Below, in pieces: positions 1-12,419 of a DNA stretch of 12,419 bases. The notes below the pieces were generated by a model, which was not told where the DNA came from, ran no database searches, and was given only the letters and a program-made list of their open reading frames with translations. Numbering within the stretch: position 1 is the first letter of the stretch; each line of letters opens with the position of its first letter. Where the stretch lies: positions 1 to 12,419 of the IMG/VR virus record IMGVR_UViG_2909246061_000007. One strand, given 5' to 3'. Position numbers and translations under genes: made by a program. The DNA comes from a virus. Lineage: Duplodnaviria; Heunggongvirae; Uroviricota; Caudoviricetes.

Positions 1-258
1 ATGCAAACCGTTATTTTTGGTCGTTCGGGTTGCCCTTACTGTGTGCGTGCAAAAGATCTGGCTGAGAAATTGAGCAATGAACGCGATGATTTTCAGTATC
101 AGTATGTAGATATTCGTGCGGAAGGGATCACTAAAGAAGATCTACAACAAAAGGCAGGTAAACCCGTAGAAACCGTGCCGCAGATTTTTGTCGATCAGCA
201 ACATATCGGCGGCTATACCGATTTTGCTGCATGGGTGAAAGAAAATCTGGACGCCTGA
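1..258 (+). CDS. grxA: glutaredoxin 1
   Basis: 85-aa ORF starting at window base 1 with the CPYC active-site motif (GCPYCVRAK) and a sequence I recognise as E. coli Grx1; followed by a hairpin terminator. Confidence 0.93.
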   Translation: MQTVIFGRSGCPYCVRAKDLAEKLSNERDDFQYQYVDIRAEGITKEDLQQKAGKPVETVPQIFVDQQHIGGYTDFAAWVKENLDA

Positions 259-269
259 TCGTCTGACAA

Positions 270-300
270 GCCCTCGCGTTGAGGGCTTTACTGATTTTTT
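270..300 (+). terminator. rho-independent terminator downstream of grxA (between convergent grxA and ybjM)
   Basis: Inverted repeat GCCCTC (270-275) / GAGGGC (281-286) with 5-nt loop, followed by a T-rich tract (TTTACTGATTTTTT). The ybjM stop codon (288-290) lies within the tail. Confidence 0.55.
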
Positions 301-665
301 CTGTGCTGTGGTTTAAACAAACTACTGATAAATAAGAAACACAGTGCCCCCAGCGCACACCAGAACACCGCGCTTAGTAACCATGCCAGCTCTTGCCAGA
401 ATGAGCGCGTCGGTGAAAAAAACAGCCGCATAATGAGCATCGAACAGGGTGCCGCCAGCATTGCGCCAAACAGAGGTTTCAGGACTTCTCTACGCTGTGA
501 AAAGAAGCTGGCGACTGCTCCAGGAAGAATGAAAAATAGCAAGCCGATTTCAGGATGCCCGGCAGCCCGAAAAGCGCCTTTCATGTGCGTCGCCAGAAAA
601 AGGCACACCACAATGAAGAGGACAAAACAGCAGATTGCCCCCGCCCAACGTTGTTTATGTTTCAC
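288..665 (-). CDS. ybjM: inner membrane protein YbjM (125 aa, multi-pass hydrophobic)
   Basis: 125-aa highly hydrophobic ORF convergent with grxA; length, sequence and position between grxA and ybjL match E. coli ybjM synteny. Confidence 0.8.
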   Translation of the reverse strand: MKHKQRWAGAICCFVLFIVVCLFLATHMKGAFRAAGHPEIGLLFFILPGAVASFFSQRREVLKPLFGAMLAAPCSMLIMRLFFSPTRSFWQELAWLLSAVFWCALGALCFLFISSLFKPQHRKNQ

Positions 666-934
666 TCGTTCCTCCTGACACTGCGTCTATCGAACACATT
701 TTTCGCCAGTGTGGCGTTCAGTAAGATAAAGCCGCTTCGCATTCCATGCTAATATAGGCCAACGCAATTCATATAGCCGTTGATACCTAATGTGATTACA
801 CTAGTAAAATATATTGTTACTTTACTATCGTTTAGGTGCGCTGAATGAATCTGCGCCCTGAATTCTGGTAAAAAACATTATCGTAAATTACCATTTCTTT
901 CAACAGCTTACTAGTAAACAAGAAGTTAGCCTCC

Positions 935-2620
935 GTGAATATAAACGTCGCCGAATTGTTAAATGGGAATTACATTCTGTTATTATTTGTGGTCCTCGCG
1001 CTTGGGCTATGTCTCGGAAAGTTACGACTTGGTTCGATCCAACTGGGTAATTCCATTGGCGTTTTAGTCGTATCGCTGTTATTAGGCCAACAACATTTCA
1101 GCATTAACACCGATGCGCTTAATCTTGGCTTTATGCTGTTTATTTTCTGCGTCGGGGTCGAAGCCGGACCGAACTTTTTTTCCATTTTTTTTCGCGATGG
1201 GAAAAATTACCTAATGTTAGCACTGGTGATGGTTGGCAGTGCGCTGGTGATCGCCTTAGGGTTAGGTAAGCTGTTTGGCTGGGATATTGGCCTGACGGCC
1301 GGTATGTTAGCAGGCTCTATGACGTCGACACCGGTTCTGGTCGGTGCTGGCGATACACTGCGTCATTCCGGCATGGAAAGCAGGCAGCTCTCACTGGCAC
1401 TGGATAATCTGAGCCTCGGGTATGCCTTAACCTATTTAATCGGTCTGGTGAGTTTGATTGTTGGTGCGCGTTACTTGCCGAAATTGCAGCATCAGGACTT
1501 ACAGACCAGCGCCCAGCAAATCGCCCGCGAACGTGGCCTGGACACTGATGCCAACCGTAAGGTTTATTTACCGGTGATCCGCGCCTATCGCGTCGGCCCG
1601 GAACTGGTGGCCTGGACCGACGGCAAAAATCTGCGTGAACTGGGTATTTATCGACAAACCGGCTGCTACATTGAACGTATTCGACGTAACGGGATTCTGG
1701 CAAATCCAGACGGTGATGCCGTGCTACAAATGGGCGATGAAATAGCGTTGGTAGGCTATCCCGACGCCCATGCCCGACTCGATCCCAGCTTCCGTAACGG
1801 TAAAGAAGTTTTCGATCGTGACCTTCTCGACATGCGTATCGTCACTGAAGAAGTGGTCGTTAAAAACCATAACGCTGTAGGTAAACGTCTCGCACAACTG
1901 AAGTTGACCGATCACGGTTGCTTCCTTAACCGCGTCATTCGTAGCCAGATTGAGATGCCGATAGATGACAACGTCGTGCTTAACAAAGGTGACGTTTTAC
2001 AAGTCAGCGGCGATGCCCGCCGCGTAAAAACCATCGCCGATCGCATCGGCTTTATCTCGATTCACAGCCAGGTCACTGACCTGCTGGCATTCTGCGCCTT
2101 CTTTGTTATTGGGCTGATGATCGGGATGATCACCTTCCAGTTCAGCACATTCAGTTTCGGCATGGGGAACGCTGCCGGGTTGTTATTCGCCGGAATTATG
2201 CTGGGCTTTATGCGTGCTAACCACCCGACCTTCGGTTACATTCCGCAGGGTGCATTAAGCATGGTGAAAGAGTTCGGCTTGATGGTGTTTATGGCAGGCG
2301 TTGGTCTGAGCGCCGGTAGCGGTATTAATAACGGCCTGGGCGCGATTGGCGGTCAGATGTTGATTGCCGGATTGATTGTCAGTCTGGTGCCCGTGGTTAT
2401 CTGTTTCTTGTTCGGTGCTTATGTATTGCGAATGAACCGCGCGCTGTTGTTCGGCGCAATGATGGGCGCACGTACCTGCGCGCCGGCAATGGAGATCATC
2501 AGTGATACAGCTCGCAGTAACATCCCGGCGCTGGGCTATGCGGGCACCTATGCAATCGCCAACGTCCTGCTGACGCTGGCAGGGACAATCATCGTCATGG
2601 TATGGCCAGGATTAGGATAA
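935..2620 (+). CDS. ybjL: putative AAE-family transporter YbjL (561 aa, GTG start)
   Basis: 561-aa ORF with hydrophobic N- and C-terminal membrane domains flanking a soluble central region, consistent with a duplicated transporter with RCK_C/TrkA-C-like domains. Sequence recognised as E. coli YbjL; GTG start at 935. Confidence 0.92.
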
Positions 2621-2732
2621 AACTGAAGTTGCCCTGAAAATGAAATTTTTTTGCACAACCGCAGAACTTTTCCGCAGGGCATCAGTCTTAATTAGTGCCA
2701 CTGCTTTTCTTTGATGTCCCCATTTTGTGGAG

Positions 2733-2775
2733 CCCATCAACCCCGCCATTTCGGTTCAAGGTTGATGGGTTTTTT
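2733..2775 (+). terminator. rho-independent terminator, about 113 bp downstream of ybjL
   Basis: Perfect 10-bp inverted repeat CCCATCAACC (2733-2742) / GGTTGATGGG (2760-2769) followed by TTTTTT (2770-2775). The 17-nt loop is long but contains internal CCG/CGG pairing. Confidence 0.6.
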
Positions 2776-2855
2776 GTTGCCTGAAATTTAAGCTGTTTAA
2801 AATCATGATGTTAGAAACACTGTTTTTTAACGATGGCGACAAAATGGCGGCAGCG

Positions 2856-3074
2856 TCAAAGAGAGAGCGCCACCTGTCCTGATTTCATTGGATGCGGCTG
2901 AACCGGATTTGACTCTTTTGGCGTTGCAATCGAACGAACAAAAGTTTCATGGGTAACAAAAGTATGGCTGCAGTTAATGTTCTGGCACTGGTTGTAACGC
3001 TCTTTGGTCAATGAAGATACCTGAAAACTGCTGCGAGTATGGGCGGCACTTCCACACAGTGGGCAAATCATCAT
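2856..3074 (-). CDS. ogr: Ogr/Delta-type zinc-finger late transcription activator
   Basis: 72 aa from the ATG at 3074 (MMICPLCGSAAHTR...ERYNQCQNINCSHTF): C-x2-C ... C-x4-C zinc-finger spacing and the ERY-QCQN-NC core typical of P2 Ogr. SD-like GGGGAGAA precedes the start. Lies at the 3' side of gene D as in P2. Confidence 0.85.
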   Translation of the reverse strand: MMICPLCGSAAHTRSSFQVSSLTKERYNQCQNINCSHTFVTHETFVRSIATPKESNPVQPHPMKSGQVALSL

Positions 3075-3164
3075 TTTTCGAGTTCTCCCCATTTTTGCTA
3101 AATTCACAATAATGACACCGCATTATTCCATTTTGCAAACTTAAAAGTTCTCCATTGCGAAGAA

Positions 3165-4016
3165 TCATTCCATTTCGAAATCATCAATCCTCACTTCAAG
3201 CTCCAGACTGGTTGTAAAACCGTTATCGGGGCTGACGGTATGCGTCAGAGTCGTAATGGTCCATTCCGCATCATCTATCGGCTGTTTAAAGCCACTGACT
3301 TTCACTGGCATTTCCGTGTAGAGATCTGCCCGACCTTCTGCCAGTTGTAGCGAGAATGACGCAACGCCGCGTTGCAGGCGTTCCCACTGCATTTTCGCCG
3401 CCCGTTCGGCGTTGCTCCGGTTGGCATAGGTGCGATTAAGTACCAGCACGTTTTCATCTGTACCCACCAGGTAATCGCCCTGCTTCGCTTCGCGGCTAAG
3501 GACAGTCAGTACCACCTCTGCAGGTGCCGGGCTGGTTGCACTGGCATCCGCCACCCGACCGTCGGCGCTTCGGGCATGAAATTCATAAGCTGCGGTTGGC
3601 CCCGCAACCGAAAGCCCTTCAAAAGCCGCAGGCACACGCAGGCGTAACGCTTCATCGCTTTCCATCACAGCAGCAACGGGTGGCACAGCGTCATTATCAG
3701 CAGGCGTCACCGTCAGGCGTTTCACGTTGTAATTGGCAGCGAGCTGGTCCAGATCGCTCCCTATGGCATAAGCCACCATCACCGCCTGCGCGGCTTCGTT
3801 AATGCGCTGGCGCAGGAGCAACTCACGATAAGCGTTCTCCTGCAACAATTTGGTAATGGGTTCAGATTCCAGTTCCAGCGTACGCATCACTGCTTCCTGC
3901 TCATCTTTCGGATGAAGCGCTACAAATTCTGCCTTGCGTTCGGCAAGCAGCGTCTCAAAGTCCGGCACATCCACAATCTGCGGCGCAGGTAACTGCGAAA
4001 GGTCAATCACTGCCAT
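3165..4016 (-). pseudogene. in-frame chimeric ORF: baseplate protein J (N-terminal part) fused to tail protein D (C-terminal part)
   Basis: N-terminus (MAVIDLSQLPAPQIVDVPDFETLLAERKA...) resembles P2 gpJ. C-terminus (...ANRSNAERAAK..WERLQRGVA...VKVSGFK...DNGFTTSLELEV) resembles the C-terminus of P2 gpD. Implies deletion of I-H-G-FI-FII-E-T-U. AGGAG SD upstream of the ATG at 4016; junction roughly 3440-3520. Confidence 0.7.
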
Positions 4017-4362
4017 TCTCTGCTCCTGTTGATACGGAAAGGGACACAGGCACACCGTTATTCCGCCGCCCGGTCAGCTCCACCACCATTGAACCGTCAA
4101 AATTGCTGTTGATGGTGATGGAATCCAGCGTCAGCCGTGGCTCCCAGCGACTCAGCGCCACATACACTGCCGACATGACCTGCAGGCGTAACGCCGGATT
4201 TTGTGGCTGGTCTATCAGTGCCGACAGCAGGGAACCATATTCACGGCGAGCAATGCGGCTACCCTGCGGCGTCAGCAGAATGTCCCGCACCGACTGGCGC
4301 AGATGGTCAATATCAGTAATGGCTTTACCGCTGGTATTGTTCATCCCGCTATAAAGCGTCAT
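4003..4362 (-). CDS. W: baseplate assembly protein W (gp25-like)
   Basis: 119-aa ORF with the pattern DIDHLRQSVRDILLTPQGSRIARREYGSLL...DQPQNPAL...WEPR, matching my recollection of P2 gpW. ATGA overlap with the upstream V fragment; its 3' end overlaps the J start. Confidence 0.82.
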   Translation of the reverse strand: MTLYSGMNNTSGKAITDIDHLRQSVRDILLTPQGSRIARREYGSLLSALIDQPQNPALRLQVMSAVYVALSRWEPRLTLDSITINSNFDGSMVVELTGRRNNGVPVSLSVSTGAENGSD

Positions 4363-4745
4363 ACCGGGCCTCCGGTTGTGTCGCCGCCTTTCAGGACGCC
4401 AGTATGCTGATGTGCATCAACCACAATTCCGTTAGAACTCATTGCACCGCCGCCCTGGGTAACACCACCATTCATCACTACTTCGCTGTTAATACGCGTG
4501 CGGTCAGCCTCCAGCACAAACTCACTGGTTTTCATGGTGATGTTGTCAGCGGCCTCAATGACCATTGATTTGATGCCCCTGACATACCAGCGCCCGGTGG
4601 CGGGTTCGTATTCAAACCAGCCACCGTCAGGATGTTCTGTCACGCAGGCGTCCGCCGACGTCGACGGTGGCGCGAACTGATTCGAATAGATGGCGGGTAA
4701 CGCAAAGGCGGTTTCCAGATTGCCGCCCAGACTCAGCAGCACCAC
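4359..4745 (-). pseudogene. baseplate spike protein V, C-terminal fragment (N-terminal roughly 80 aa missing)
   Basis: ORF aligns with the C-terminal two-thirds of P2 gpV (LSLGGNLETAFALPAIYS...; glycine-rich C-terminal tip HTGVLKGGDTTGGPV). No V N-terminal domain is present upstream; the upstream ORF is instead a lysB-like fragment. Confidence 0.7.
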
Positions 4746-5041
4746 CTGCTCACCTTCCGATGGTCGCCACCATGTGCGGGCATTATCCGGTGTTGTCGTT
4801 GTCTCAGCAGCGCGCTGGTCTGTTCTGCTTCGGCATAGAGCCGCGCCTGCTCCCGGTTATTGGTTTCAGTCAGAATGGACAGGCTGATAAGCTGGCTGTT
4901 GCTCTTTGCCAGTGCCTGGCTTTTGCTCTGCAGCTCGTCTGCCTGCGTGCTGATGGTCTGGCTGGCATCAGCCAGCCGCCACGTCTGCCAGCCCAGCGCC
5001 GCCAGTAATAACGCCAGCATAACCAGCAGCAACCGGTTCAT
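4733..5041 (-). pseudogene. LysB/Rz-like i-spanin, N-terminal fragment (3' part deleted, so the embedded o-spanin is presumably lost)
   Basis: N-terminal TM segment (MNRLLLVMLALLLAALGW) followed by a coiled-coil-like Q/A/L-rich region, in the lysB position with ATGA overlap to lysA (5038-5041). The C-terminal about 20 aa look like unrelated read-through near the junction with V. Confidence 0.55.
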
Positions 5042-5415
5042 GCTGCTACCTGTTGCGCCATCTGATTACGGGTGATCCAGAAGGCAATAACGGTCAGTAG
5101 ATAAAAGACCAGGGTAATAGCCCACCCCGTCCAGGCGAGACTTACGACAATCAGCAATCGCATCACCCAGCTGATAAATACGTTTTCTTTTCGGGTAATG
5201 GTCTTCAGCAAAGATGCCCTCAACTCCTGCCAGAGCGGGCCATTCTTAATTAACGCAGCCAGTGCTACCGGAATTACCGCCCATGTCAGTAAACAGGCTA
5301 CCCAAACGCCGGACGCTGCCAGTACCGGAAAAATCCCCTGGGGATACACCATTGCTGCGATTAACAGCGCCATCCATAACATCAGAAACAGCCCGCTGAT
5401 TAATTTCTTTTTCAT
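5038..5415 (-). CDS. lysA: LysA-like lysis-timing membrane protein (about 125 aa, 4 predicted TM segments)
   Basis: Start assigned to the ATG at 5415 (MKKKLISGLF...), immediately after the K stop codon. Very hydrophobic, in the position of P2 lysA between K and lysB. Confidence 0.65.
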   Translation of the reverse strand: MKKKLISGLFLMLWMALLIAAMVYPQGIFPVLAASGVWVACLLTWAVIPVALAALIKNGPLWQELRASLLKTITRKENVFISWVMRLLIVVSLAWTGWAITLVFYLLTVIAFWITRNQMAQQVAA

Positions 5416-5416
5416 T

Positions 5417-5929
5417 TCAGTTTGCTCCCTGTAAACACCAGGCCATCTCCCGCGCACGGCGGTTATCCAGCCCCTGATTAAACACACCTTTCACATAAAC
5501 CCAGCGCGGCAACTGTCGGCACGCATCCGCCCAGCGCCGCTGATTGAGTAATTTCACCAGCGTGGAACTGCAGGCATTGCCCGTTCCCACGTTGAAGGCA
5601 AACGACACCGCAGTGTCATATACCTTCTGCGGCGGCTGTTGTTTCACACACCTTTCCAGCGCCCGCTCCACACGCAGCACGTTGGAAATCAGTCCTTCTG
5701 CTGCCTGTCGTTCCGTAATGGTTTTGCCGGGAATGACGCCTGACGTGTTACCAATGCCGTCGGTCCAGACGCCCGCGCTGCACTGATACGGCTGCAGACG
5801 ACAGCCTTCGTAATCGGCAATCAGTTTCAGCCCCTCCACGGAGGTGTGAAGCTGCTGAAACCCCGGCAGCGTGGCAGCAATAGCCAGCACGGCCCCGACA
5901 AGGCAGCGTTTAACGATTGATGGATTCAT
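5417..5929 (-). CDS. K: endolysin, T4-lysozyme-like (GH24) with probable SAR-type N-terminal hydrophobic segment
   Basis: 170-aa ORF with an N-terminal hydrophobic stretch (CLVGAVLAIAATLPG) and E-x8-D-x5-T-like catalytic spacing (YEGCRLQPYQCSAGVWTDGIGNT). GGGAGGA SD upstream; in the position of P2 gene K. Confidence 0.8.
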   Translation of the reverse strand: MNPSIVKRCLVGAVLAIAATLPGFQQLHTSVEGLKLIADYEGCRLQPYQCSAGVWTDGIGNTSGVIPGKTITERQAAEGLISNVLRVERALERCVKQQPPQKVYDTAVSFAFNVGTGNACSSTLVKLLNQRRWADACRQLPRWVYVKGVFNQGLDNRRAREMAWCLQGAN

Positions 5930-6125
5930 AGTCCTCCCGCGAGATCTGCCCGTCGCGCAGAAGCTGGTAGGCTTTGTGTTTGTAGTACCAGTTGATAGCC
6001 AGCATCAGCACACCAATCATCAGGCCGCCCAGCGTTGAGGCATCCTTGATGGACAAATCGCCCAGCCAGGCCAGCACAACGGCGATGCAGTACGTGATAA
6101 AGGCGCTGATTCGCTCAAGCGTCAT
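5910..6125 (-). CDS. holin (class II / pinholin-like, 71 aa, two TM segments)
   Basis: Small ORF directly upstream of the endolysin with 20-nt overlap; two hydrophobic helices and a charged C-terminal tail, at the gene Y position. Confidence 0.6.
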   Translation of the reverse strand: MTLERISAFITYCIAVVLAWLGDLSIKDASTLGGLMIGVLMLAINWYYKHKAYQLLRDGQISREDYESINR

Positions 6126-6128
6126 AAT

Positions 6129-6251
6129 TCAGTCCCATAGCTGGACGGTCTGCACGGTGGTGGTGGTCGGAATGTCCGGCAGCTCCACCTGCAGCCCGTG
6201 AGGTAAAAAGGGGCCATAGCCCGCATTGCTGAAATGCTGGGCGAGAAAGTT
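6129..6251 (-). pseudogene. tail protein X, C-terminal fragment
   Basis: Last about 30-40 codons (...FLPHGLQVELPDIPTTTTVQTVQLWD) match the C-terminus of P2 gpX (LPHG..VELPD....LWE). The upstream part of the ORF is unrelated antisense read-through into P. Implies loss of O-N-M-L. Confidence 0.55.
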
Positions 6252-7907
6252 GCAACCGTTCACAGCTGGAAAAAACGCGACAAGTGGGGTGACTATGGGC
6301 CGCTGGATCAGATGCAGCTCACCACCGCCGCACGCTACTGCCAGCTTATTATGAAGGAGCACAAAGAAGGGAAAGATTTCAAAGAGATTGACCTGCTGGC
6401 GCGCCAGTCGGAACGCCACGCGCGGATCGGCAAGTTTAACAATGGCGGCAACGAAGCCGACTTAAACCCAAACGTCGCCAACCGCAACAAAGGCCCGCGC
6501 CGTCAGCCGGAAAAGAATGTTTTCACCGATGAACAGATTGAGAAGCTGGAAGAAATCTTCCATTCCTCCATGTTCAACTACCAGCGCCACTGGTGGGAAG
6601 CCGGAAAAACCAACCGCATCCGCAACCTGCTGAAGTCACGCCAGATCGGCGCGACCTTTTACTTTGCCCGTGAAGCCCTGATTGACGCCCTGCTGACCGG
6701 ACGTAACCAGATTTTCCTTTCCGCCAGCAAGGCACAGGCCCACGTCTTTAAGCAGTACATCATCGACTTCGCCAAAGAAGTGGAAGTGGAGCTGAAAGGC
6801 GATCCGATGGTGCTTCCCAACGGGGCCACGCTTTACTTCCTCGGCACCAATGCCCGCACGGCCCAGAGTTACCACGGCAACCTGTATCTGGATGAATATT
6901 TCTGGATACCGAAATTCCAGGAGCTGCGCAAAGTGGCTTCCGGTATGGCTATTCACAAAAAATGGCGACAGACCTATTTTTCCACGCCATCCAGCCTGAC
7001 ACACAGTGCTTATCCGTTCTGGTCCGGTGCACTGTTCAACCGTGGGCGCAACAAAGCCGATAAGGTGGACATCGACCTGTCCCACAGCAACCTGGCCCCC
7101 GGCCTGCTCTGCGCAGACGGGCAGTACCGCCAGATAGTCACCGTGGAAGATGCGGTGCGCGGCGGCTGTAACCTGTTCGACCTTGACCAGTTGCGCATGG
7201 AGTACAGCCCGGACGAATACCAGAACCTGCTGATGTGCGAGTTTGTGGACGATCTCGCGTCCGTGTTCCCGCTCAGCGAGCTGCAGGCGTGCATGGTGGA
7301 CAGCTGGGAAGTCTGGACCGACTTTCATGCACTGGCACTGCGCCCATTTGGCTGGCGCGAAGTGTGGATCGGTTATGATCCGGCGAAAGGTACGCAGAAC
7401 GGCGACAGTGCCGGATGCGTGGTGGTGGCACCGCCAGCCGTGCCGGGCGGCAAGTTCCGCATTCTTGAGCGTCACCAGTGGCGCGGGATGGACTTTCGCG
7501 CCCAGGCTGACGCCATCAAAAAACTGACCGAACAGTACAACGTGACCTATATCGGCATCGACTCAACCGGTGTTGGTCACGGGGTTTATGAGAACGTGAA
7601 AGCGTTCTTTCCTGCCGTCCGGGAGTTTGTCTACAACCCCAACGTTAAAAACGCCTTGGTACTCAAGGCCTACGACATTATCAACCACCGCCGTCTGGAG
7701 TTTGACGCCGGGCACACCGACATTGCGCAGTCATTCATGGCAATCCGTCGCGCCACCACCGCCAGCGGCAACCGCCCAACCTATGAAGCCAGCCGCAGCG
7801 AAGAAGCCAGCCATGCCGATCTGGCCTGGGCAACAATGCACGCACTGTTTAACGAACCGCTGCAGGGCGAATCCGCCAATACCAGCAATATTGTGGAGAT
7901 TTTTTGA
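6234..7907 (+). CDS. P: terminase large (ATPase) subunit P, probably N-terminally truncated
   Basis: 557-aa ORF with strong resemblance to P2 gpP from about residue 30 onward (ARYCQL...EIDLLARQSERHARIGK...KSRQIGATFYFAREALIDAL...NLLMCEFVDD...SEEASHADLAWA). True start uncertain (ATG 6234 or 6312); the 5' end abuts the X fragment, so the native promoter is probably deleted. Confidence 0.85.
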   Translation: MLGEKVATVHSWKKRDKWGDYGPLDQMQLTTAARYCQLIMKEHKEGKDFKEIDLLARQSERHARIGKFNNGGNEADLNPNVANRNKGPRRQPEKNVFTDEQIEKLEEIFHSSMFNYQRHWWEAGKTNRIRNLLKSRQIGATFYFAREALIDALLTGRNQIFLSASKAQAHVFKQYIIDFAKEVEVELKGDPMVLPNGATLYFLGTNARTAQSYHGNLYLDEYFWIPKFQELRKVASGMAIHKKWRQTYFSTPSSLTHSAYPFWSGALFNRGRNKADKVDIDLSHSNLAPGLLCADGQYRQIVTVEDAVRGGCNLFDLDQLRMEYSPDEYQNLLMCEFVDDLASVFPLSELQACMVDSWEVWTDFHALALRPFGWREVWIGYDPAKGTQNGDSAGCVVVAPPAVPGGKFRILERHQWRGMDFRAQADAIKKLTEQYNVTYIGIDSTGVGHGVYENVKAFFPAVREFVYNPNVKNALVLKAYDIINHRRLEFDAGHTDIAQSFMAIRRATTASGNRPTYEASRSEEASHADLAWATMHALFNEPLQGESANTSNIVEIF

Positions 7908-8380
7908 TGGGAAAGAGTAAGAAAAACCGCGCTGCGGCGACGAATCAGCTCCAGCATAAAAGCCAAACTTCAGCCGAAGCATTCAGCTTCGGTGATCCCA
8001 TTCCAGTACTTGACCGCCGCGAACTGCTGGACTATGTGGAATGCGTACAAACAGATCGCTGGTATGAGCCACCAGTGAGTTTCGACGGGCTGGCGCGTAC
8101 CTTTCGCGCTGCCGTGCATCACAGTTCACCAATTGCGGTGAAATGCAACATTCTGACCAGTACCTACATCCCTCACCCGCTGCTCAGCCAGCAGGCTTTT
8201 TCACGTTTTGTGCAGGACTATCTGGTATTTGGTAACGCCTACCTGGAGAAACGCACGAACCGCTTCGGTGAAGTTATCGCCCTTGAGCCTGCTCTGGCAA
8301 AATACACCCGACGCGGGTTAGACCTGGATACCGCACCTGCAGCAACACGCCCGATCTCTGCGGTTGCACTCATGACATAA
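7907..8380 (+). pseudogene. Q: portal protein Q, N-terminal fragment (about 145 of roughly 340 aa)
   Basis: ATG at 7907 overlaps the P stop TGA (7905-7907). The N-terminal region (FSFGDPIPVLDRRELLDYVEC...WYEPPVSFDGLAR...AVHHSSPI...KYTRRG) is portal-like; the ORF then diverges and stops at 8380, overlapping the cII-like ORF on the opposite strand. Confidence 0.72.
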
Positions 8381-8661
8381 TGCGGCAGTTTCTCTTTTGC
8401 CACCTCATTAATCGGTACACATGGCAGGCAGTGAATCTGTGCCAGAAAGCCATCTACCAGCGTTGAATCTTCAGTCAGATCGGTAAGCAACCAGATTTCT
8501 GGTGCGGTTAATAAATGAGGTTGAGCTGGGTTCAGCTTGTTCCGCAGAATCTGTACATTCATGCCTGCACGTTCTGCCAGTCGCACCAGGTTGTGGCGCA
8601 GTGCGAATGCACGACAGGCTTCGTCAAAATGTGGATGTTTGGAAACTTGGTAATCAAACAT
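8239..8661 (-). pseudogene. cII: 186-type CII-like regulator, 3'-truncated and reading through into antisense of the Q fragment
   Basis: ATG at 8661 preceded by a [57 protein letters not shown]...[26 protein letters not shown] matches the phage 186 CII family (HTH). Resemblance is lost after about 115 codons, near 8320-8345. Confidence 0.68.
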
Positions 8662-8693
8662 AGTCGACACCCCTGATGTATCCCAAAATGGAA

Positions 8694-8915
8694 CTAGTTG
8701 AATACAACATTGCAATCAGTAAGTGCATCAACGGTAAGAGCAGCAAGGTTGATCATTACCTTTTCTCTTTTCTTGTCTTTCCGAAGGCGATGGCGAGGGA
8801 TGCGACCATCAGCCAGCATATCGTTGATGGTGTCGATAGAAAGACCAGTAAGTTCGCTATAACGCTCAATTGTGACGTGTGGCGTATTCAGAGTTATTGA
8901 AATGTTAGGGGTCAT
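8694..8915 (-). CDS. Apl/Cox-like small DNA-binding protein (73 aa; excisionase / lytic-side switch regulator)
   Basis: ATG at 8915 with an AGGAGA SD. Small basic protein with HTH-like segment ([25 protein letters not shown]), divergent from cI and upstream of cII, i.e. the 186 apl position. Confidence 0.6.
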
Positions 8916-9010
8916 GATGCAACATCTCCTATTGGCTTGTGGTGAGCCTGTAGTAATCGTGACAAGTACCCAAACGGGGACAAAATTGATACTAGGATCG
9001 CAAAAGAGAT
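8916..9010. promoter_or_regulatory. lysis-lysogeny switch region between divergent apl-like and cI genes (lytic and lysogenic promoters and operators expected)
   Basis: 95-bp intergenic region between divergently oriented regulator genes; position is analogous to the pR/pL region of 186. Individual -10/-35 hexamers could not be assigned confidently by eye. Confidence 0.5.
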
Positions 9011-9607
9011 ATGTCAACATCAAAGTACCCAAATGAGATCAAAATAAATCCCAATAAAGGTGGTAAGGCTGCGATTGAGCGATTAGTCGAAGCTTATGGC
9101 TTTACGACACGACAGGCTTTAGCTGATCACTTGGAAGTATCAAAAAGCACTCTGGCGAACAGGTATTTGCGGGATACGTTTCCTGCAGACTGGATAATCC
9201 AATGTGCTCTTGAAACAGGAACCTCACTGAAATGGTTAACCACCGGGCAAGGCCTTAAGCAAAGCTCGCTGACAGCAGCTACAGAAGAGCTTGCCAAGTT
9301 TCGCCTTACCGCAGGCAAAATGATTGAAGATGGTTCATATGTCTTCGATTCATCATTTCTTCCTGCAAATCTTTCATCACCAATTGTTATTCAGGATGGG
9401 CTCGTCACATACATTTGTGATCAAAAATTTTCTGAAGTACTTGATGGGCACTGGTTAATCAACATCGACGGAACCTATTCCATTCGAAAAATCACAAAGC
9501 TTCCAAAAGGTATGATTAAAATTACAAGTACAGAGAATAGCTTTGAATGTGCATTTTCTGATATTGAAGTAGTTGCTTGTATAAGAAGTACAATAGTTTC
9601 AAATTAA
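9011..9607 (+). CDS. cI: 186-type CI immunity repressor
   Basis: 198-aa ORF with an N-terminal HTH (ERLVEAYGFTTRQALADHLEVSKSTLANRY...CALETGTSLKWLTTGQG) and a C-terminal region (HWLINIDGTYSIRKITKLP...FECAFSDIEV) that match my recollection of phage 186 CI across both domains. Confidence 0.85.
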   Translation: MSTSKYPNEIKINPNKGGKAAIERLVEAYGFTTRQALADHLEVSKSTLANRYLRDTFPADWIIQCALETGTSLKWLTTGQGLKQSSLTAATEELAKFRLTAGKMIEDGSYVFDSSFLPANLSSPIVIQDGLVTYICDQKFSEVLDGHWLINIDGTYSIRKITKLPKGMIKITSTENSFECAFSDIEVVACIRSTIVSN

Positions 9608-9627
9608 TATAGTAAAAGGATTTAAAA

Positions 9628-11304
9628 ATGAATTCATTTTCCATCGTTATATTCTTATTAGCATTTCTCGCCCCCATTCTAGCTGTAATATTATTTAAGC
9701 AAAGCAAAAAACATAAAGCGGCTATAGATACCTTGACAGCTAACAACATAGCCCTTTCCAACCAACTGAAAGAAAATCAAGAAGAATTAGCACAGACTGT
9801 ACGAGATCTATCAGAGCTTGAAGGACGAGCTGCACCATTATGGCAATACGTAGAATTGCACAGCGCAGTGATGGAAGCAGAGAATAAGATAAAAAATGCA
9901 GACTCAATAGCCAGGCAAAAAATAGAAGAAGCCCAAATAAAGGCTGCTAAGACAGTAAACGAAGCAAATTATCAAGCTCAGATAAAAATAAGCAACGCTA
10001 ATAGCGAAGCTATAGCAATTACTAAAGACGCTCGCGATGCACGCCTGAAAGCTAAAGAACGTCTTGATAATGCCAATAGTAAAGCAAATGAGCTGATCTC
10101 AAATGCTAATGACAATGCAGTGAAAATTATTTCCGATGCAGAAGAAAGAGCAAAAGAGATTGCTGGTTCAGCATATGAAGCTAAAGAGTTTGCAGAAAAA
10201 TATGAAGCAGTTGCCAAATCAATGAAAAATAAAATTGAAGGTTATGGTGATGAATGGATCATCCCTAACCGTAGCGTTCTCGATGAATTGGCAGAAAATT
10301 ATGAGTTTACAGATGCAGGCAAGGAATTACAAAAAGCCAGGGAGTTAACAAAATCATTAATAAAAACTAATAAAGCTGCTTCGTGTGATTATGTTGAACA
10401 AAACAGGCGTAATACTGCTATCAACTTTGTTTTAGATGCCTTCAATGGAAGAGTTGACAGTATTTTATCAAAAGTCAAACACAACAATTTTGGAAAACTT
10501 TCCCAAGAGATAAAAGATGCGTTTCAACTTGTAAATTACAATGGTTCTGCCTTTAGGTCCGCAAAAATAAGTGACATCTATCTTCAAGCTCGACTCAACG
10601 AGCTAAAATGGGGTGTTGCAGTTAATGAAATTATGCTCGAAGAAAAAGAAGAGCAAAGAAGGATTAAAGAACAACTTCGTGAAGAGGAAAGAGCTCGTAG
10701 GGAGTATGAAAAAGCGATAAAAGAAGCTGAAAAAGAAGAGAAAGCTATTCAGCAAGCTATAAATAAAGCAACAAAAGAGCTTATGCTTGCAAATGAAGAA
10801 CAACGCTTAGCTTTAGAGCAAAAAATAGCTGAACTACAGTTAAAATATGAAGAAGCTGAAGCTAAAAACCAACGAGCTATTTCTATGGCTCAACAAACTA
10901 GATCAGGCCACGTTTATATAATTAGTAATATTGGCTCATTTGGCGAAGATGTATATAAAATTGGAATGACACGCCGCCTTGAACCACTTGATCGTGTTCG
11001 TGAACTCGGTGATGCTAGTGTTCCTTTTTCGTTCGATGTTCATGCGATGATTTATAGTGATGATGCACCATCATTAGAAAATCATCTGCATAAAGTCTTC
11101 AACGAAAAACAGGTCAATAAAATTAACTCACGAAAAGAGTTTTTCAACGTAAATATTAAAGAAATTAAGTCTGTTATTGAAGATATGAACATCAACGCAC
11201 AATGGACAATGTTTGCGGAAGCGAAAGAATATAGAGAGTCACTGGCGATTGAGCAAGAGCGCAAAGCAGCAACTTCCGCCAACGATGAACTGCATGTTGC
11301 TTAG
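9628..11304 (+). CDS. membrane-anchored coiled-coil protein with C-terminal GIY-YIG-like (T5orf172/MUG113-type) domain; candidate defense/exclusion cargo gene
   Basis: 558-aa ORF with an aaagga SD 6-11 nt upstream. Residues 1-24 form a hydrophobic anchor; about 30-200 and 330-420 are E/K/A-rich coiled coil; about 205-330 is a globular region; about 427-510 is GHVYIISN-x9-VYKIGMTRR...E...RKEFF (GIY-x10-YIG-R...E...EFF pattern). Visibly AT-rich compared with flanking phage genes. Confidence 0.8.
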   Translation: MNSFSIVIFLLAFLAPILAVILFKQSKKHKAAIDTLTANNIALSNQLKENQEELAQTVRDLSELEGRAAPLWQYVELHSAVMEAENKIKNADSIARQKIEEAQIKAAKTVNEANYQAQIKISNANSEAIAITKDARDARLKAKERLDNANSKANELISNANDNAVKIISDAEERAKEIAGSAYEAKEFAEKYEAVAKSMKNKIEGYGDEWIIPNRSVLDELAENYEFTDAGKELQKARELTKSLIKTNKAASCDYVEQNRRNTAINFVLDAFNGRVDSILSKVKHNNFGKLSQEIKDAFQLVNYNGSAFRSAKISDIYLQARLNELKWGVAVNEIMLEEKEEQRRIKEQLREEERARREYEKAIKEAEKEEKAIQQAINKATKELMLANEEQRLALEQKIAELQLKYEEAEAKNQRAISMAQQTRSGHVYIISNIGSFGEDVYKIGMTRRLEPLDRVRELGDASVPFSFDVHAMIYSDDAPSLENHLHKVFNEKQVNKINSRKEFFNVNIKEIKSVIEDMNINAQWTMFAEAKEYRESLAIEQERKAATSANDELHVA

Positions 11305-11362
11305 CAATGTATGTTTCATAGTAATCACACATTGATTACTGGTTGTATATACAGTTAAATTT

Positions 11363-11387
11363 AGCCCTCTGATATGAGGGCTTTTTT
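11363..11387 (+). terminator. rho-independent terminator immediately upstream of int; stem overlaps the int ribosome-binding site
   Basis: AGCCCTC (11363-11369), loop TGATAT, GAGGGCT (11376-11382), then TTTTTT (11382-11387) directly followed by the int ATG at 11388. Confidence 0.65.
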
Positions 11388-12419
11388 ATGGCAGTACGAA
11401 AACTCACCACAGGAAAATGGCTTTGCGAATGTTACCCCGCCGGACGTAGTGGACGTCGTGTGCGTAAACAATTCGCCACCAAAGGCGAAGCTCTGGCTTT
11501 TGAGCGTCACACGATGGAAGAAACCGAAGCAAAGCCCTGGCTGGGTGAATCAGTGGATCGTCGAACACTGAAAGACGTGGTTGAACTATGGTTCAAACTA
11601 CATGGTAAATCTCTGACAGCTGGGCAGCATGTCTATGACAAATTGCTGTTGATGGTTGACGCTCTGGGCAATCCCCTTGCAACCGATCTCACCTCTAAAA
11701 TGTTTGCCCACTATCGAGATAAACGTCTGACAGGAGAGATCTACTTCAGCGAAAAATGGAAGAAAGGAGCAAGCCCGGTCACCATTAACCTGGAGCAAAG
11801 CTATCTAAGTAGTGTTTTTAGCGAACTATCCCGCCTGGGCGAATGGTCGTATCCGAACCCACTGGAGAACATGCGAAAATTCACCATCGCAGAAAAAGAG
11901 ATGGCATGGCTTACCCATGAGCAGATTGTTGAATTGCTGGCTGATTGCAAACGTCAGGACCCAATTCTGGCACTGGTAGTTAAGATATGCTTAAGCACAG
12001 GCGCACGTTGGCGTGAAGCCGTAAATCTTACCCGCTCACAGGTGACCAAATACCGAATTACCTTTGTAAGAACGAAGGGGAAGAAAAACAGAAGCATCCC
12101 TATCAGTAAAGAGCTTTACGAAGAGATCATGGCGCTTGATGGGTTCAATTTCTTTACAGACTGCTATTTTCAATTTTTATCCGTGATGGAAAAAACGTCT
12201 ATCGTGCTCCCTCGCGGTCAACTGACACACGTTCTGCGCCATACGTTTGCGGCGCACTTCATGATGTCGGGTGGAAATATCCTGGCCTTACAAAAAATTC
12301 TCGGGCATCACGATATAAAAATGACTATGCGTTACGCACATCTGGCACCGGATCACCTGGAAACTGCATTACGGTTTAATCCGCTGGCAACACTACCAAC
12401 ATCAATAGCAAGTTTTTGA
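11388..12419 (+). CDS. int: P2-family tyrosine integrase
   Basis: 343-aa ORF ending with TGA at the last base of the window. Contains tyrosine-recombinase catalytic regions (LSTGARWREA..., HVLRHTFAAHFMMSGGNILALQKILGHHDIKMTMRYAHL with R, H-x-x-R, and Y). Position after cI matches P2/186 organisation. Confidence 0.9.
   Translation: MAVRKLTTGKWLCECYPAGRSGRRVRKQFATKGEALAFERHTMEETEAKPWLGESVDRRTLKDVVELWFKLHGKSLTAGQHVYDKLLLMVDALGNPLATDLTSKMFAHYRDKRLTGEIYFSEKWKKGASPVTINLEQSYLSSVFSELSRLGEWSYPNPLENMRKFTIAEKEMAWLTHEQIVELLADCKRQDPILALVVKICLSTGARWREAVNLTRSQVTKYRITFVRTKGKKNRSIPISKELYEEIMALDGFNFFTDCYFQFLSVMEKTSIVLPRGQLTHVLRHTFAAHFMMSGGNILALQKILGHHDIKMTMRYAHLAPDHLETALRFNPLATLPTSIASF

Follow-up and report, generated by a model that had tools for sequence, protein, structure and literature searches.

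A P2/186-like prophage remnant at the rybB locus of Escherichia coli, very probably pared down by four deletions with joints biased towards TA

How does a prophage of the P2/186 type shrink from some 32-33 kb to some 10 kb with its gene order still legible, and what decides where it is cut? These questions are raised by a stretch of 12,419 nucleotides (nt) of Caudoviricetes DNA, positions 1 to 12,419 of IMG/VR record IMGVR_UViG_2909246061_000007, hereafter the window, in which the remnant of a P2/186-like prophage (Peduoviridae) lies at the 3′ end of rybB, between ybjL and rcdA, in Escherichia coli. A preliminary description, made from the sequence without database searches, had read positions 2856-8661 as the product of at least four internal deletions, and had noted that this reading would fall if the open reading frames (ORFs) proved to be full-length genes of an intact compact genome, for example a satellite. 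The remnant is larger than that, running from an attachment (att) core at about 2766-2779 to beyond the end of the window. The analysis reported here indicates that it very probably derives from a P2/186-like phage inserted at rybB and cut by four deletions of the illegitimate-joining kind, with joints biased towards the dinucleotide TA and a breakpoint hotspot in the gene cII. Deletional prophage decay and microhomology at joints are well known; the bias of the junctions and the recurrent cII breakpoint appear to be the new part, as the library searched, which is incomplete, yielded nothing on a hotspot in cII or on prophage deletions anchored at TA.

To place the junctions, the window was aligned to an intact P2-like prophage (CP019275, locus L004 in our numbering), ON470620 (L003), PSS-10 (L001), BL21 (L002), P2 and 186. 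Four colinear blocks (3488-4789, 4785-6218, 6217-8332 and 8327-12399) match L003 and L004 at 96-98% DNA identity and, more weakly, P2 and 186; the late genes are homologous to those of P2, and their order and strands follow the P2 map, as had been claimed. Over the ogr-D′ end (2944-3491), identity to L004 is 83%, and BL21 is almost identical there. No fifth deletion was found, 8327-12399 being colinear with L003.

At junction 1 (3488-3491), nt 1-529 of J are joined to the last 327 nt of D through a shared CTTC, the only junction in the window without TA. The deletion spans 11,146 bp and took the 3′ part of J, the genes I, H, G, invertase, FI, FII, E, T and U, the 5′ part of D and the F-operon promoter. 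Junction 2 (4784-4789) fuses the final 431 nt of V to nt 1-257 of lysB at TA[T/C]CCG, that is, TA, one mismatch and CCG; measured against the state in PSS-10 it spans 1,359 bp, comprising the 5′ end of V, the V-operon promoter region, S, R, lysC and the 3′ end of lysB. Junction 3 (6215-6218) joins the last 90 nt of X to P without its first 76 nt, and reads CATA in the window and CGTA in both parents; its 3,454 bp contained the 5′ part of X, L, M, N, O, the divergent P/O late promoters and the first 76 nt of P. At junction 4 (8327-8332), Q breaks off after nt 426 and is joined to nt 1-335 of cII at GATACC, with TA at 8329-8330; the deleted 7,435 bp contained the 3′ part of Q, cos, cargo, tum/dinI, A with the origin (ori), dam, B, fil and the 3′ part of cII. 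Together the four deletions amount to about 23.4 kb. The proposed positions held well: the J::D and Q::cII joints fall within the ranges first given (about 3440-3520 and about 8320-8345, the latter with the expected loss of cos and the replication genes). So does the lysB/V joint (about 4745-4790), where the losses go beyond the R and S that had been named to include lysC, the lysB and V ends and the V promoter region. The X/P joint is real, some 30 nt left of the range proposed for it (about 6250-6320), and the truncation of P had passed unremarked.

Every one of the four junctions shows microhomology of 2-6 bp, for which a base-level alignment had been advised; in the reference prophage, 16% of random position pairs share at least 2 nt. 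No insertion sequence (IS) element or long repeat was found at any of the four. As order and strand are kept and such repeats are lacking, the events are deletions rather than rearrangements, and short microhomology of this kind is the signature of homology-independent (illegitimate) joining. RecA-independent illegitimate recombination in E. coli comprises a gyrase-mediated and a short-homology-dependent class. The events described here share with such recombination the microhomology of 2-8 bp and the absence of IS elements and long repeats, and differ from it in their strong preference for joints at TA within G-N-T-A and for a small number of recurrent sites.

Each named ORF in the shortened region aligns to only part of a full-length gene. 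On the minus strand, an in-frame J′-′D chimera of 283 amino acids (aa; WP_118393997.1; 3165-4016) matches Pfam Baseplate_J and Phage_GPD; its D′ portion (3165-3491, minus strand), the C-terminal 327 nt of tail gene D, aligns to L004 31604-31930 and covers positions 196-302 of the 305 in the Phage_GPD profile. V′ (4359-4789, minus strand), the C-terminal 431 nt of the baseplate spike gene, aligns to L004 19156-19586, lacks its native start and matches the Pfam Apex motif only. In lysB′ (4733-5041, minus strand), the first 257 nt of lysB supply 85 N-terminal codons, to which a 17-aa out-of-frame tail is added, and the Rz/Rz1-type spanin pair is destroyed. X′ (6129-6218, minus strand) is the last 90 nt of tail gene X, aligned to L004 16368-16457 and again without a native start. 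On the plus strand, P′ (6217-7907) is the large terminase gene without 25 N-terminal codons, matching positions 22-58 of the 58 in Pfam Terminase_5 and the complete Terminase_6N and 6C; its promoter is lost, and it can start only at an internal ATG at 6234, which gives a 557-aa ORF. Q′ (7907-8332, plus strand) retains 142 N-terminal codons (426 nt) of the portal gene in an ORF that extends to 8380 and ends in a 15-aa foreign tail. Finally, cII′ (8327-8661, minus strand) retains 111 N-terminal codons (335 nt) of a 186-type CII gene (Phage_CP76 positions 1-112 of 146), and its ORF reads on for 29 codons into antisense Q. The reference alignments are gapless and free of internal stops, so the statement that all fragments are still open is essentially correct, with V′ and X′ lacking their native starts.

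These alignments bear directly on the alternative that the element is a functional compact one, such as a P4-like satellite or a helper-dependent island with full-length ORFs. Its retention of int, repressor, cox and ogr does lend it a superficial likeness to satellites with delta/ogr-like activators. However, its late-gene ORFs are fragments of longer genes, 95-98% identical to intact relatives and cut off at abrupt junctions; neither a primase/helicase nor a sid/psu-like gene nor cos was found in the ORF list or the Pfam scan, in which the matches are partial; and the intermediate and further decayed relatives described below bespeak ongoing loss. The compact satellite genome is thus refuted as an account of these ORFs by the alignments and the partial Pfam coverage, and we regard such an element as next to inconceivable here.

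The order in which the deletions arose can be read from related assemblies. Among 5,426 complete E. coli genomes, only PSS-10 matches the window from end to end, in two pieces whose combined span exceeds the window by 1,359 bp; the two sequences differ by 4 substitutions in 12.4 kb, the match being listed at 100%. In this set, junctions 1, 3 and 4 occur in PSS-10 alone and junction 2 in none. Among about 15 billion catalogued proteins, the exact J′-′D chimera and P′ occur on 13 contigs each and the tailed cII′ and Q′ ORFs on 17 contigs (33 blocks), while the lysB′ and V′ ORFs created by junction 2 occur on a single contig, JAGMIL010000001.1 of GCA_022975895.1 (L113), from which the window derives. 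The three-deletion state, with lysB-lysC-R-S-V intact, is found in PSS-10, in L112 and in 12 similar places. Comparison with other E. coli genomes had been suggested as a search for intermediates, and PSS-10 and about a dozen assemblies, which carry deletions 1, 3 and 4 without deletion 2, are such intermediates. Deletions 1, 3 and 4 therefore came first and are common to a small clone, and deletion 2 is the latest and private to one assembly.

Sister assemblies carry further losses of their own, each joined at TA: lysA::W in L111 (2,187 bp), K::V in L118 (1,735 bp) and, in L115, both an internal Q′/P′ deletion (689 bp) and V::D′ (1,509 bp). The three-deletion remnant has thus lost more pieces independently at least four times. 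With PSS-10 lacking deletion 2, that deletion confined to one contig and the sisters carrying other losses, the lineage is still shrinking and junction 2 is its newest joint. The earlier claim that the deletions are not ancient is borne out by this distribution (a single contig for junction 2, PSS-10 alone for the others, 4 substitutions), and not by the open frames on which it had been based. Residue 27 of cII′ (window region 8580-8583) is Arg in the window and PSS-10 and Gln in other junction-4 carriers (P0133, 3 contigs); junction 4 is therefore present on two slightly different backgrounds.

The joints themselves are far from random in sequence. A crossover at TA is seen in three of the four window junctions, in seven of the eight deletions of the lineage and, over all the junctions examined, in 18 of 20. 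In the reference prophage TA is found in 3.7% of microhomologies of at least 2 nt, which gives a P of about 8e-10 for seven of eight. All five deletions for which the exact parent is available are joined at TA (shared sequences TA, CGG[A/G]TA, GG[C/A]TCATA, TA and TA), and TA crossovers occur as well at junction 3, at the ETEC6334 junction (GTTAC) and at the second L017 junction. Moreover, G-N-T-A stands on the same strand of both parents in 15 of 16 TA junctions, against 16% expected. Its N is identical between the parents in only 5 of 15 cases; since N usually differs, the conserved G does not belong to a contiguous paired block, and in our judgement the pattern favours recognition by a protein over annealing.

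Some of these sites are used repeatedly. Common to the three recurrent ones, in cII, V and D, is GCGG(G)TA. With the caret marking the joint, they read GTGCGGTA^T in cII, where the motif is present on both strands; GCGCGGGTA^A in V, used by junction 2 and by L115; and, on the other strand, CGCGGGTA^T in D, used by the D′::invertase′ deletion of BL21 and by the cII′::D′ deletion of the ssrA-site prophages L015/L016. The recurrent TA in D corresponds to L004 31528-31530, and the BL21 joint lies at L002 6538-6598.

The cII site stands out among them. The breakpoint is GTGCGGTA^TCTGG; the retained cII ends in CAGGTGCGGTA in every hotspot case, and the site itself, GGTATC at codons V110/S111, presents G-N-T-A on both strands. 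The list of cII junctions was compiled by a search for junction 4, then from the 90%-identity protein cluster that contains the window's cII′ ORF, and by pattern scans. A first protein search had listed full-length CII only and was uninformative on truncations. The pattern scan of metagenomes added one new junction and one of the BL21 type, and that of the GTDB representatives gave no further cII junctions. At least ten different partners are joined to the cII TA; the prophages concerned occupy either of two attachment sites (rybB or ssrA), and three types of CI and two integrases are represented among them. They are Q at nt 426 in the window and at nt ~351 in L102, from a food metagenome; A in BL21 and, near its start, in L013/L014; T in LR-27 and, at another position, in HH107; U in ETEC1706; D in L010-L012 (more than 180 blocks) and, at another position, in L015/L016; and FI in L017. 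Junction 4 is thus one of at least ten independent uses of the hotspot.

The partners, too, have features in common. When the partner parents are read along the cII coding strand, TA directly precedes the joint in all of them, and the bases after the joint resemble the TCTGG of cII, position +2 being C in 9 of 9 (P 1e-5) and position +4 being G in 8 of 9 (P 2e-4); by permutation, the similarity of the partner sites to the cII site has P < 5e-6. Where the parents differ, the bases on the right of TA in the product come from the partner in all seven informative cII junctions, which places the joint in or at TA. No unusual conservation of the cII site was seen in 60 unique intact alleles, the third codon positions varying as elsewhere.

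Could the protein product, rather than the DNA, explain why cII is repeatedly broken at the same place? Selection for a truncated CII of residues 1-110/111, or for in-frame CII fusions, would give the impression of a mutational hotspot. All remnants do keep the same 110-111 residues, and five of the eight same-strand cII junctions are in-frame fusions, namely CII′-A′ of 481 aa in BL21, CII′-T′ of 420 and 466 aa, CII′-U′ of 212 aa and CII′-FI′ of 384 aa. The excess is, however, not significant (five of eight against one-third expected). Furthermore, TA precedes the TCTGG- or TATC-type partner block in 4 of 4 cases in which it is not needed, for which chance would give about (1/16)^4; because this TA lies in the discarded flank of the partner, selection on the protein cannot account for it, and it would leave unexplained the same TA rule at junctions outside cII. 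We therefore hold selection of this kind to be very improbable as the source of the recurrent break. The fusion ORFs are located in L002 (BL21; 22155-23600), L007, L008, L009 and L017, and the annotation pipeline PGAP labels that of LR-27 an intact 'CII family protein'.

A fixed end with many partners is also what is known from lambda Int-promoted deletions, which have one end at att, and from IS-adjacent deletions; the cII site resembles both in this and differs from them in that its fixed end is not att and has no IS or terminal inverted repeat. Among the phage's own enzymes, the initiator A could have cut cII at a pseudo-origin, or the integrase at a secondary attachment site. The site GG^TATC-TGGCGAT bears a weak likeness to the cognate origin TTGG^ACTCGTGGCAAT, and a TGGCG motif like the arm-type sites lies 4 nt from the cII break. 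Against A, the prophage contains better origin-like sites than the one in cII, TA is missing from the nick in the true origins (P2, 186 and L003), and a synthetic cII::ori junction was found in 0 of the 5,426 genomes; against the integrase, the att core ATGGGTTTTTTGTT is unlike the cII site GGTATCTGG, and the hotspot is used in ssrA-site prophages that have another integrase. A cut by either enzyme is hardly credible.

Several further candidates were rejected. A transposon end at cII would call for the retained terminus to recur, as a second copy or as an inverted repeat, and it does not; the gix-like sites of the tail-fibre invertase are ACC-NN-GGT, with no TA. XerCD/dif, Chi, type II/IIS restriction sites and the protospacer-adjacent motifs of CRISPR were dropped after comparison by eye, since they either disagree with where the joint lies or do not occur in every host; DarT (TNTC), RuvC/RusA and topoisomerase I (C at -4) were dropped in the same way and on the same grounds, and the Rpn nucleases because they are reported to be non-specific for sequence.

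Host type IIA topoisomerases offer an attractive possibility, in which gyrase or topoisomerase IV cleaves preferred sites and subunit exchange or end joining links them. Illegitimate recombination mediated by gyrase was reportedly established by Ikeda and co-workers. The recurrent sites in cII, V and D resemble the core of the gyrase consensus obtained by Topo-Seq (GGCGGTAT^NNNN^ATACCGCC) and the strong gyrase site of Mu (GTGCGGGT^GATT), as these are given in the supplement to PMC6379681, and a TA step at the centre of the gyrase G-segment is reported to be highly deformable (PMC13284261). Scored by match to this consensus, the left half of the cII site ranks within the top 0.4% of positions; on the same measure, however, the whole cII site is ordinary, in the top 17%. 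In the consensus register, with the cut one base past TA and a 4-nt stagger, the bases seen directly after TA could not have come from the right-hand parent; only a Mu-like T^A register fits, and the products behave as if made with a 2-nt (TA) rather than a 4-nt overlap. On balance, a type IIA topoisomerase seems an unlikely maker of these joints.

Alternatively, the joints may have arisen by copy choice, in which a strand ending in G-N-T-A-3′ re-primes on another G-N-T-A, the new strand then consisting of the donor up to TA and of the acceptor after it. The sequence of one parent always occupies the imperfectly homologous side of TA (7 of 7 informative cII junctions, and also the exact-parent events), and homology is found on one side of TA only, as such a microhomology-guided template switch would have it. 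Replication of P2 type, by rolling circle, provides long single strands, which also counts for this view. It leaves the 3′ ends at TA unaccounted for, however, and does not explain why G is needed at -4 when -3 matches in only 5 of 15; the distances of 0.7-28 kb are long for slippage, and no significant hairpin stands beside the cII site, where folding is no better than shuffled on either strand (z = -0.4 and -0.8). Template switching by a nascent strand ending in GNTA-3′ is the next most likely cause of the joints that we can name, and even so it is doubtful.

The cause that we place first is sequence-preferring breakage or strand transfer made by a protein at G-N-T-A, followed by joining at TA, to which we give about an even chance. 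As to the sequence of events, a P2/186-like temperate phage very probably integrated at the 3′ end of rybB and then underwent deletions 1, 3 and 4, with deletion 2 following in one assembly. A wider proposition can be put forward more tentatively, at somewhat less than even odds: that P2/186-like prophages are dismantled not by random illegitimate recombination but by a sequence-directed process that joins G-N-T-A sites at TA, with the cII site GGTATC, palindromic for the motif, as a super-hotspot.

Several observations weigh against these readings. Neither junction 1 (CTTC) nor the K::O junction of BL21 has TA. Other cII breakpoints exist, one in ETEC6334 at about nt 396, joined to R, and one in N32, mediated by IS3, and the region is intact in 1,240 of 1,320 E. 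coli records. The cII survey was seeded from the window's own fragment and one 90%-identity protein cluster, and is therefore biased to this allele and to the retained N-terminal side. Apart from the five exact-parent events, the partner parents are proxies at 94-100% identity. The tests of the A nickase, the integrase and a transposon end yielded no maker for the TA joints. Selection may plausibly have retained cI, int and the defence gene described below.

What would follow differs between the levels of this argument. The remnant itself represents ordinary prophage decay, as one well-resolved example with intermediate and further decayed sister states. If the sequence-directed proposition is true, cII deletions of 2-28 kb would repeatedly yield an arrangement of the type ogr ... 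partner::cII′-cox-cI-int, often with in-frame CII fusions, and an unrecognized site-preferring breakage-rejoining activity, a host topoisomerase or some other enzyme, would shape prophage decay. The 'domestication' of prophages would then be steered partly by mutation bias and not by selection alone; similar remnants, including that of BL21, could arise repeatedly without common ancestry; and the cII site would provide a simple assay for an E. coli breakage-rejoining activity not yet tied to genome reduction.

The closest known counterpart is the defective P2-like prophage of E. coli B/BL21, which occupies the same ybjL-rybB-rcdA site, belongs to the same family, likewise shows several deletions, with the pseudogenes D′, K′, A′ and cII′, and has cII broken at the same TA. 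It is nevertheless of another lineage, at 95-96% identity in the late genes and 78% in the immunity region, and its deletions are different ones (cII′::A′, D′::invertase′ and K′::O); it keeps most tail genes and has a retron where the window has nothing. With P2, 186, the CP019275 prophage and vB_EcoM-813R9 the window shares gene order, strands, Ogr/B, the 186-type CI/Apl/CII switch, the lysis cassette Y-K-lysA-lysB/lysC and the P/Q terminase-portal genes; it differs from them by the loss of about 23 kb, including cos, ori/A, B, the capsid genes, most tail genes and every late promoter, and P2 and 186 themselves are only about 67-76% identical to it in DNA. A smaller remnant is that of K-12, reportedly described by Barreiro and Haggard-Ljungquist in 1992 as a cryptic P2 remnant of about 0.6 kb with ogrK and a D fragment at the P2 locH site. 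It is reported to end, like the left end of the remnant in the window, in ogr and the C-terminal part of D, at a different site and without an immunity end.

What can such a remnant still do? Three intergenic regions of L004 match the late promoters annotated in P2 as Ogr-binding (12990-13131, P/O; 18940-19007, S-V; 24951-25092, upstream of FI), and all three fall within deleted spans; every one of the four late promoter regions that depend on Ogr has thus been lost. The full-length lysA, endolysin K and holin Y genes (5038-6125, minus strand; Pfam Phage_lysozyme) are therefore left without a promoter. As cos, A/ori, B, the capsid and most tail genes and the late promoters all lie in the deleted spans, the element is a remnant and not a phage, and from its gene content it is predicted to be unable to replicate, package or excise as one. 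CI, Cox/Apl, the integrase, Ogr and a PD-Lambda-1/SNIPE protein are still encoded; these, the parts of use to a host, may have been kept by selection.

Of the lysogeny switch, the Ogr/B zinc finger, CI and Apl (Cox) are present, with CII in part (Pfam Ogr_Delta, Phage_CI_repr, Phage_CI_C and Phage_CP76). The late-gene activator gene ogr/B (2856-3074, minus strand) is intact (Ogr_Delta, E 5e-22; RefSeq annotation of PSS-10), as is the 186-type CI repressor gene (9011-9607, plus strand). The intact cox/apl-like gene (8694-8915, minus strand) is assigned by its position and by the annotation of L001 and L003, the Pfam and PADLOC scans having given no match for it. Full length, too, is the gp25-like baseplate wedge gene W (4003-4362, minus strand; Pfam GPW_gp25).

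The window opens with the E. coli genes grxA, ybjM and ybjL (ORF list) and is phage-derived from about 2780 through to its end. The integrase gene (11388-12419, plus strand) has its stop codon at the last base of the window. A tyrosine integrase and flanking direct att repeats are both present, as in Peduoviridae. The left copy of the att core, ATGGGTTTTTTGTT at 2766-2779, is the terminator tail of rybB, and the right copy lies past the end of the window, at about 17228-17241 of the PSS-10 locus; in PSS-10 a direct repeat of about 14 nt thus stands at both ends of the insertion. K-12 represents the empty site, in which rcdA directly adjoins rybB, and K-12 4012-4037 aligns to both ends of L001. 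The small RNA gene rybB (2700-2778, plus strand; Rfam RF00110, 105 bits, full length) remains complete because the phage end restores a terminator-like tail, which is seen at window 2700-2790. Just inside the left end, at 2833-2854 (plus strand), lie the tandem TGGCG repeats TGGCGACAAAATGGCGGCAGCG, seen again near the integrase end of the prophage: the same 22-nt block with two TGGCG repeats, TGGCGACAAA[A/G]TGGCGGCAGCG, is found at L001 17108-17129. By their likeness to the 186 consensus YAYCGCCAYTY, annotated in L006, these blocks are probably arm-type sites of the integrase.

Besides E. coli B/BL21, ON470620 carries another P2-like prophage at the rybB site. The ON470620 record holds flanking host genes and a run of Ns at the left phage/host boundary (about 5204-5213); the truncated tail-fibre end in this record was rejected as a deletion junction, as it is an assembly gap.

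Between cI and int, the window carries as cargo an intact gene of 558 aa (9628-11304, plus strand) of the DUF4041/SNIPE/PD-Lambda-1 type, predicted to act in anti-phage defence. Its product matches the PADLOC model PD-Lambda-1 (PDLC03976) with E 4e-120 over profile positions 37-481 of 491, and Pfam SNIPE and T5orf172 domains on an identical defence gene are consistent with assignment to this family. In the sister contig L114 the gene is split into ORFs of 223 and 251 aa, and in BL21-type relatives the cI-int slot holds a small YdcA-like ORF instead. The variable cargo slots of the relatives (L013, L014, L002 and L003) are occupied by differing genes of defence type: DarT-Macro (DarTG), a retron St85/Ec86 pair in BL21, an HsdR-like protein with a KAP NTPase and, between V and S, a pair of ATPases.

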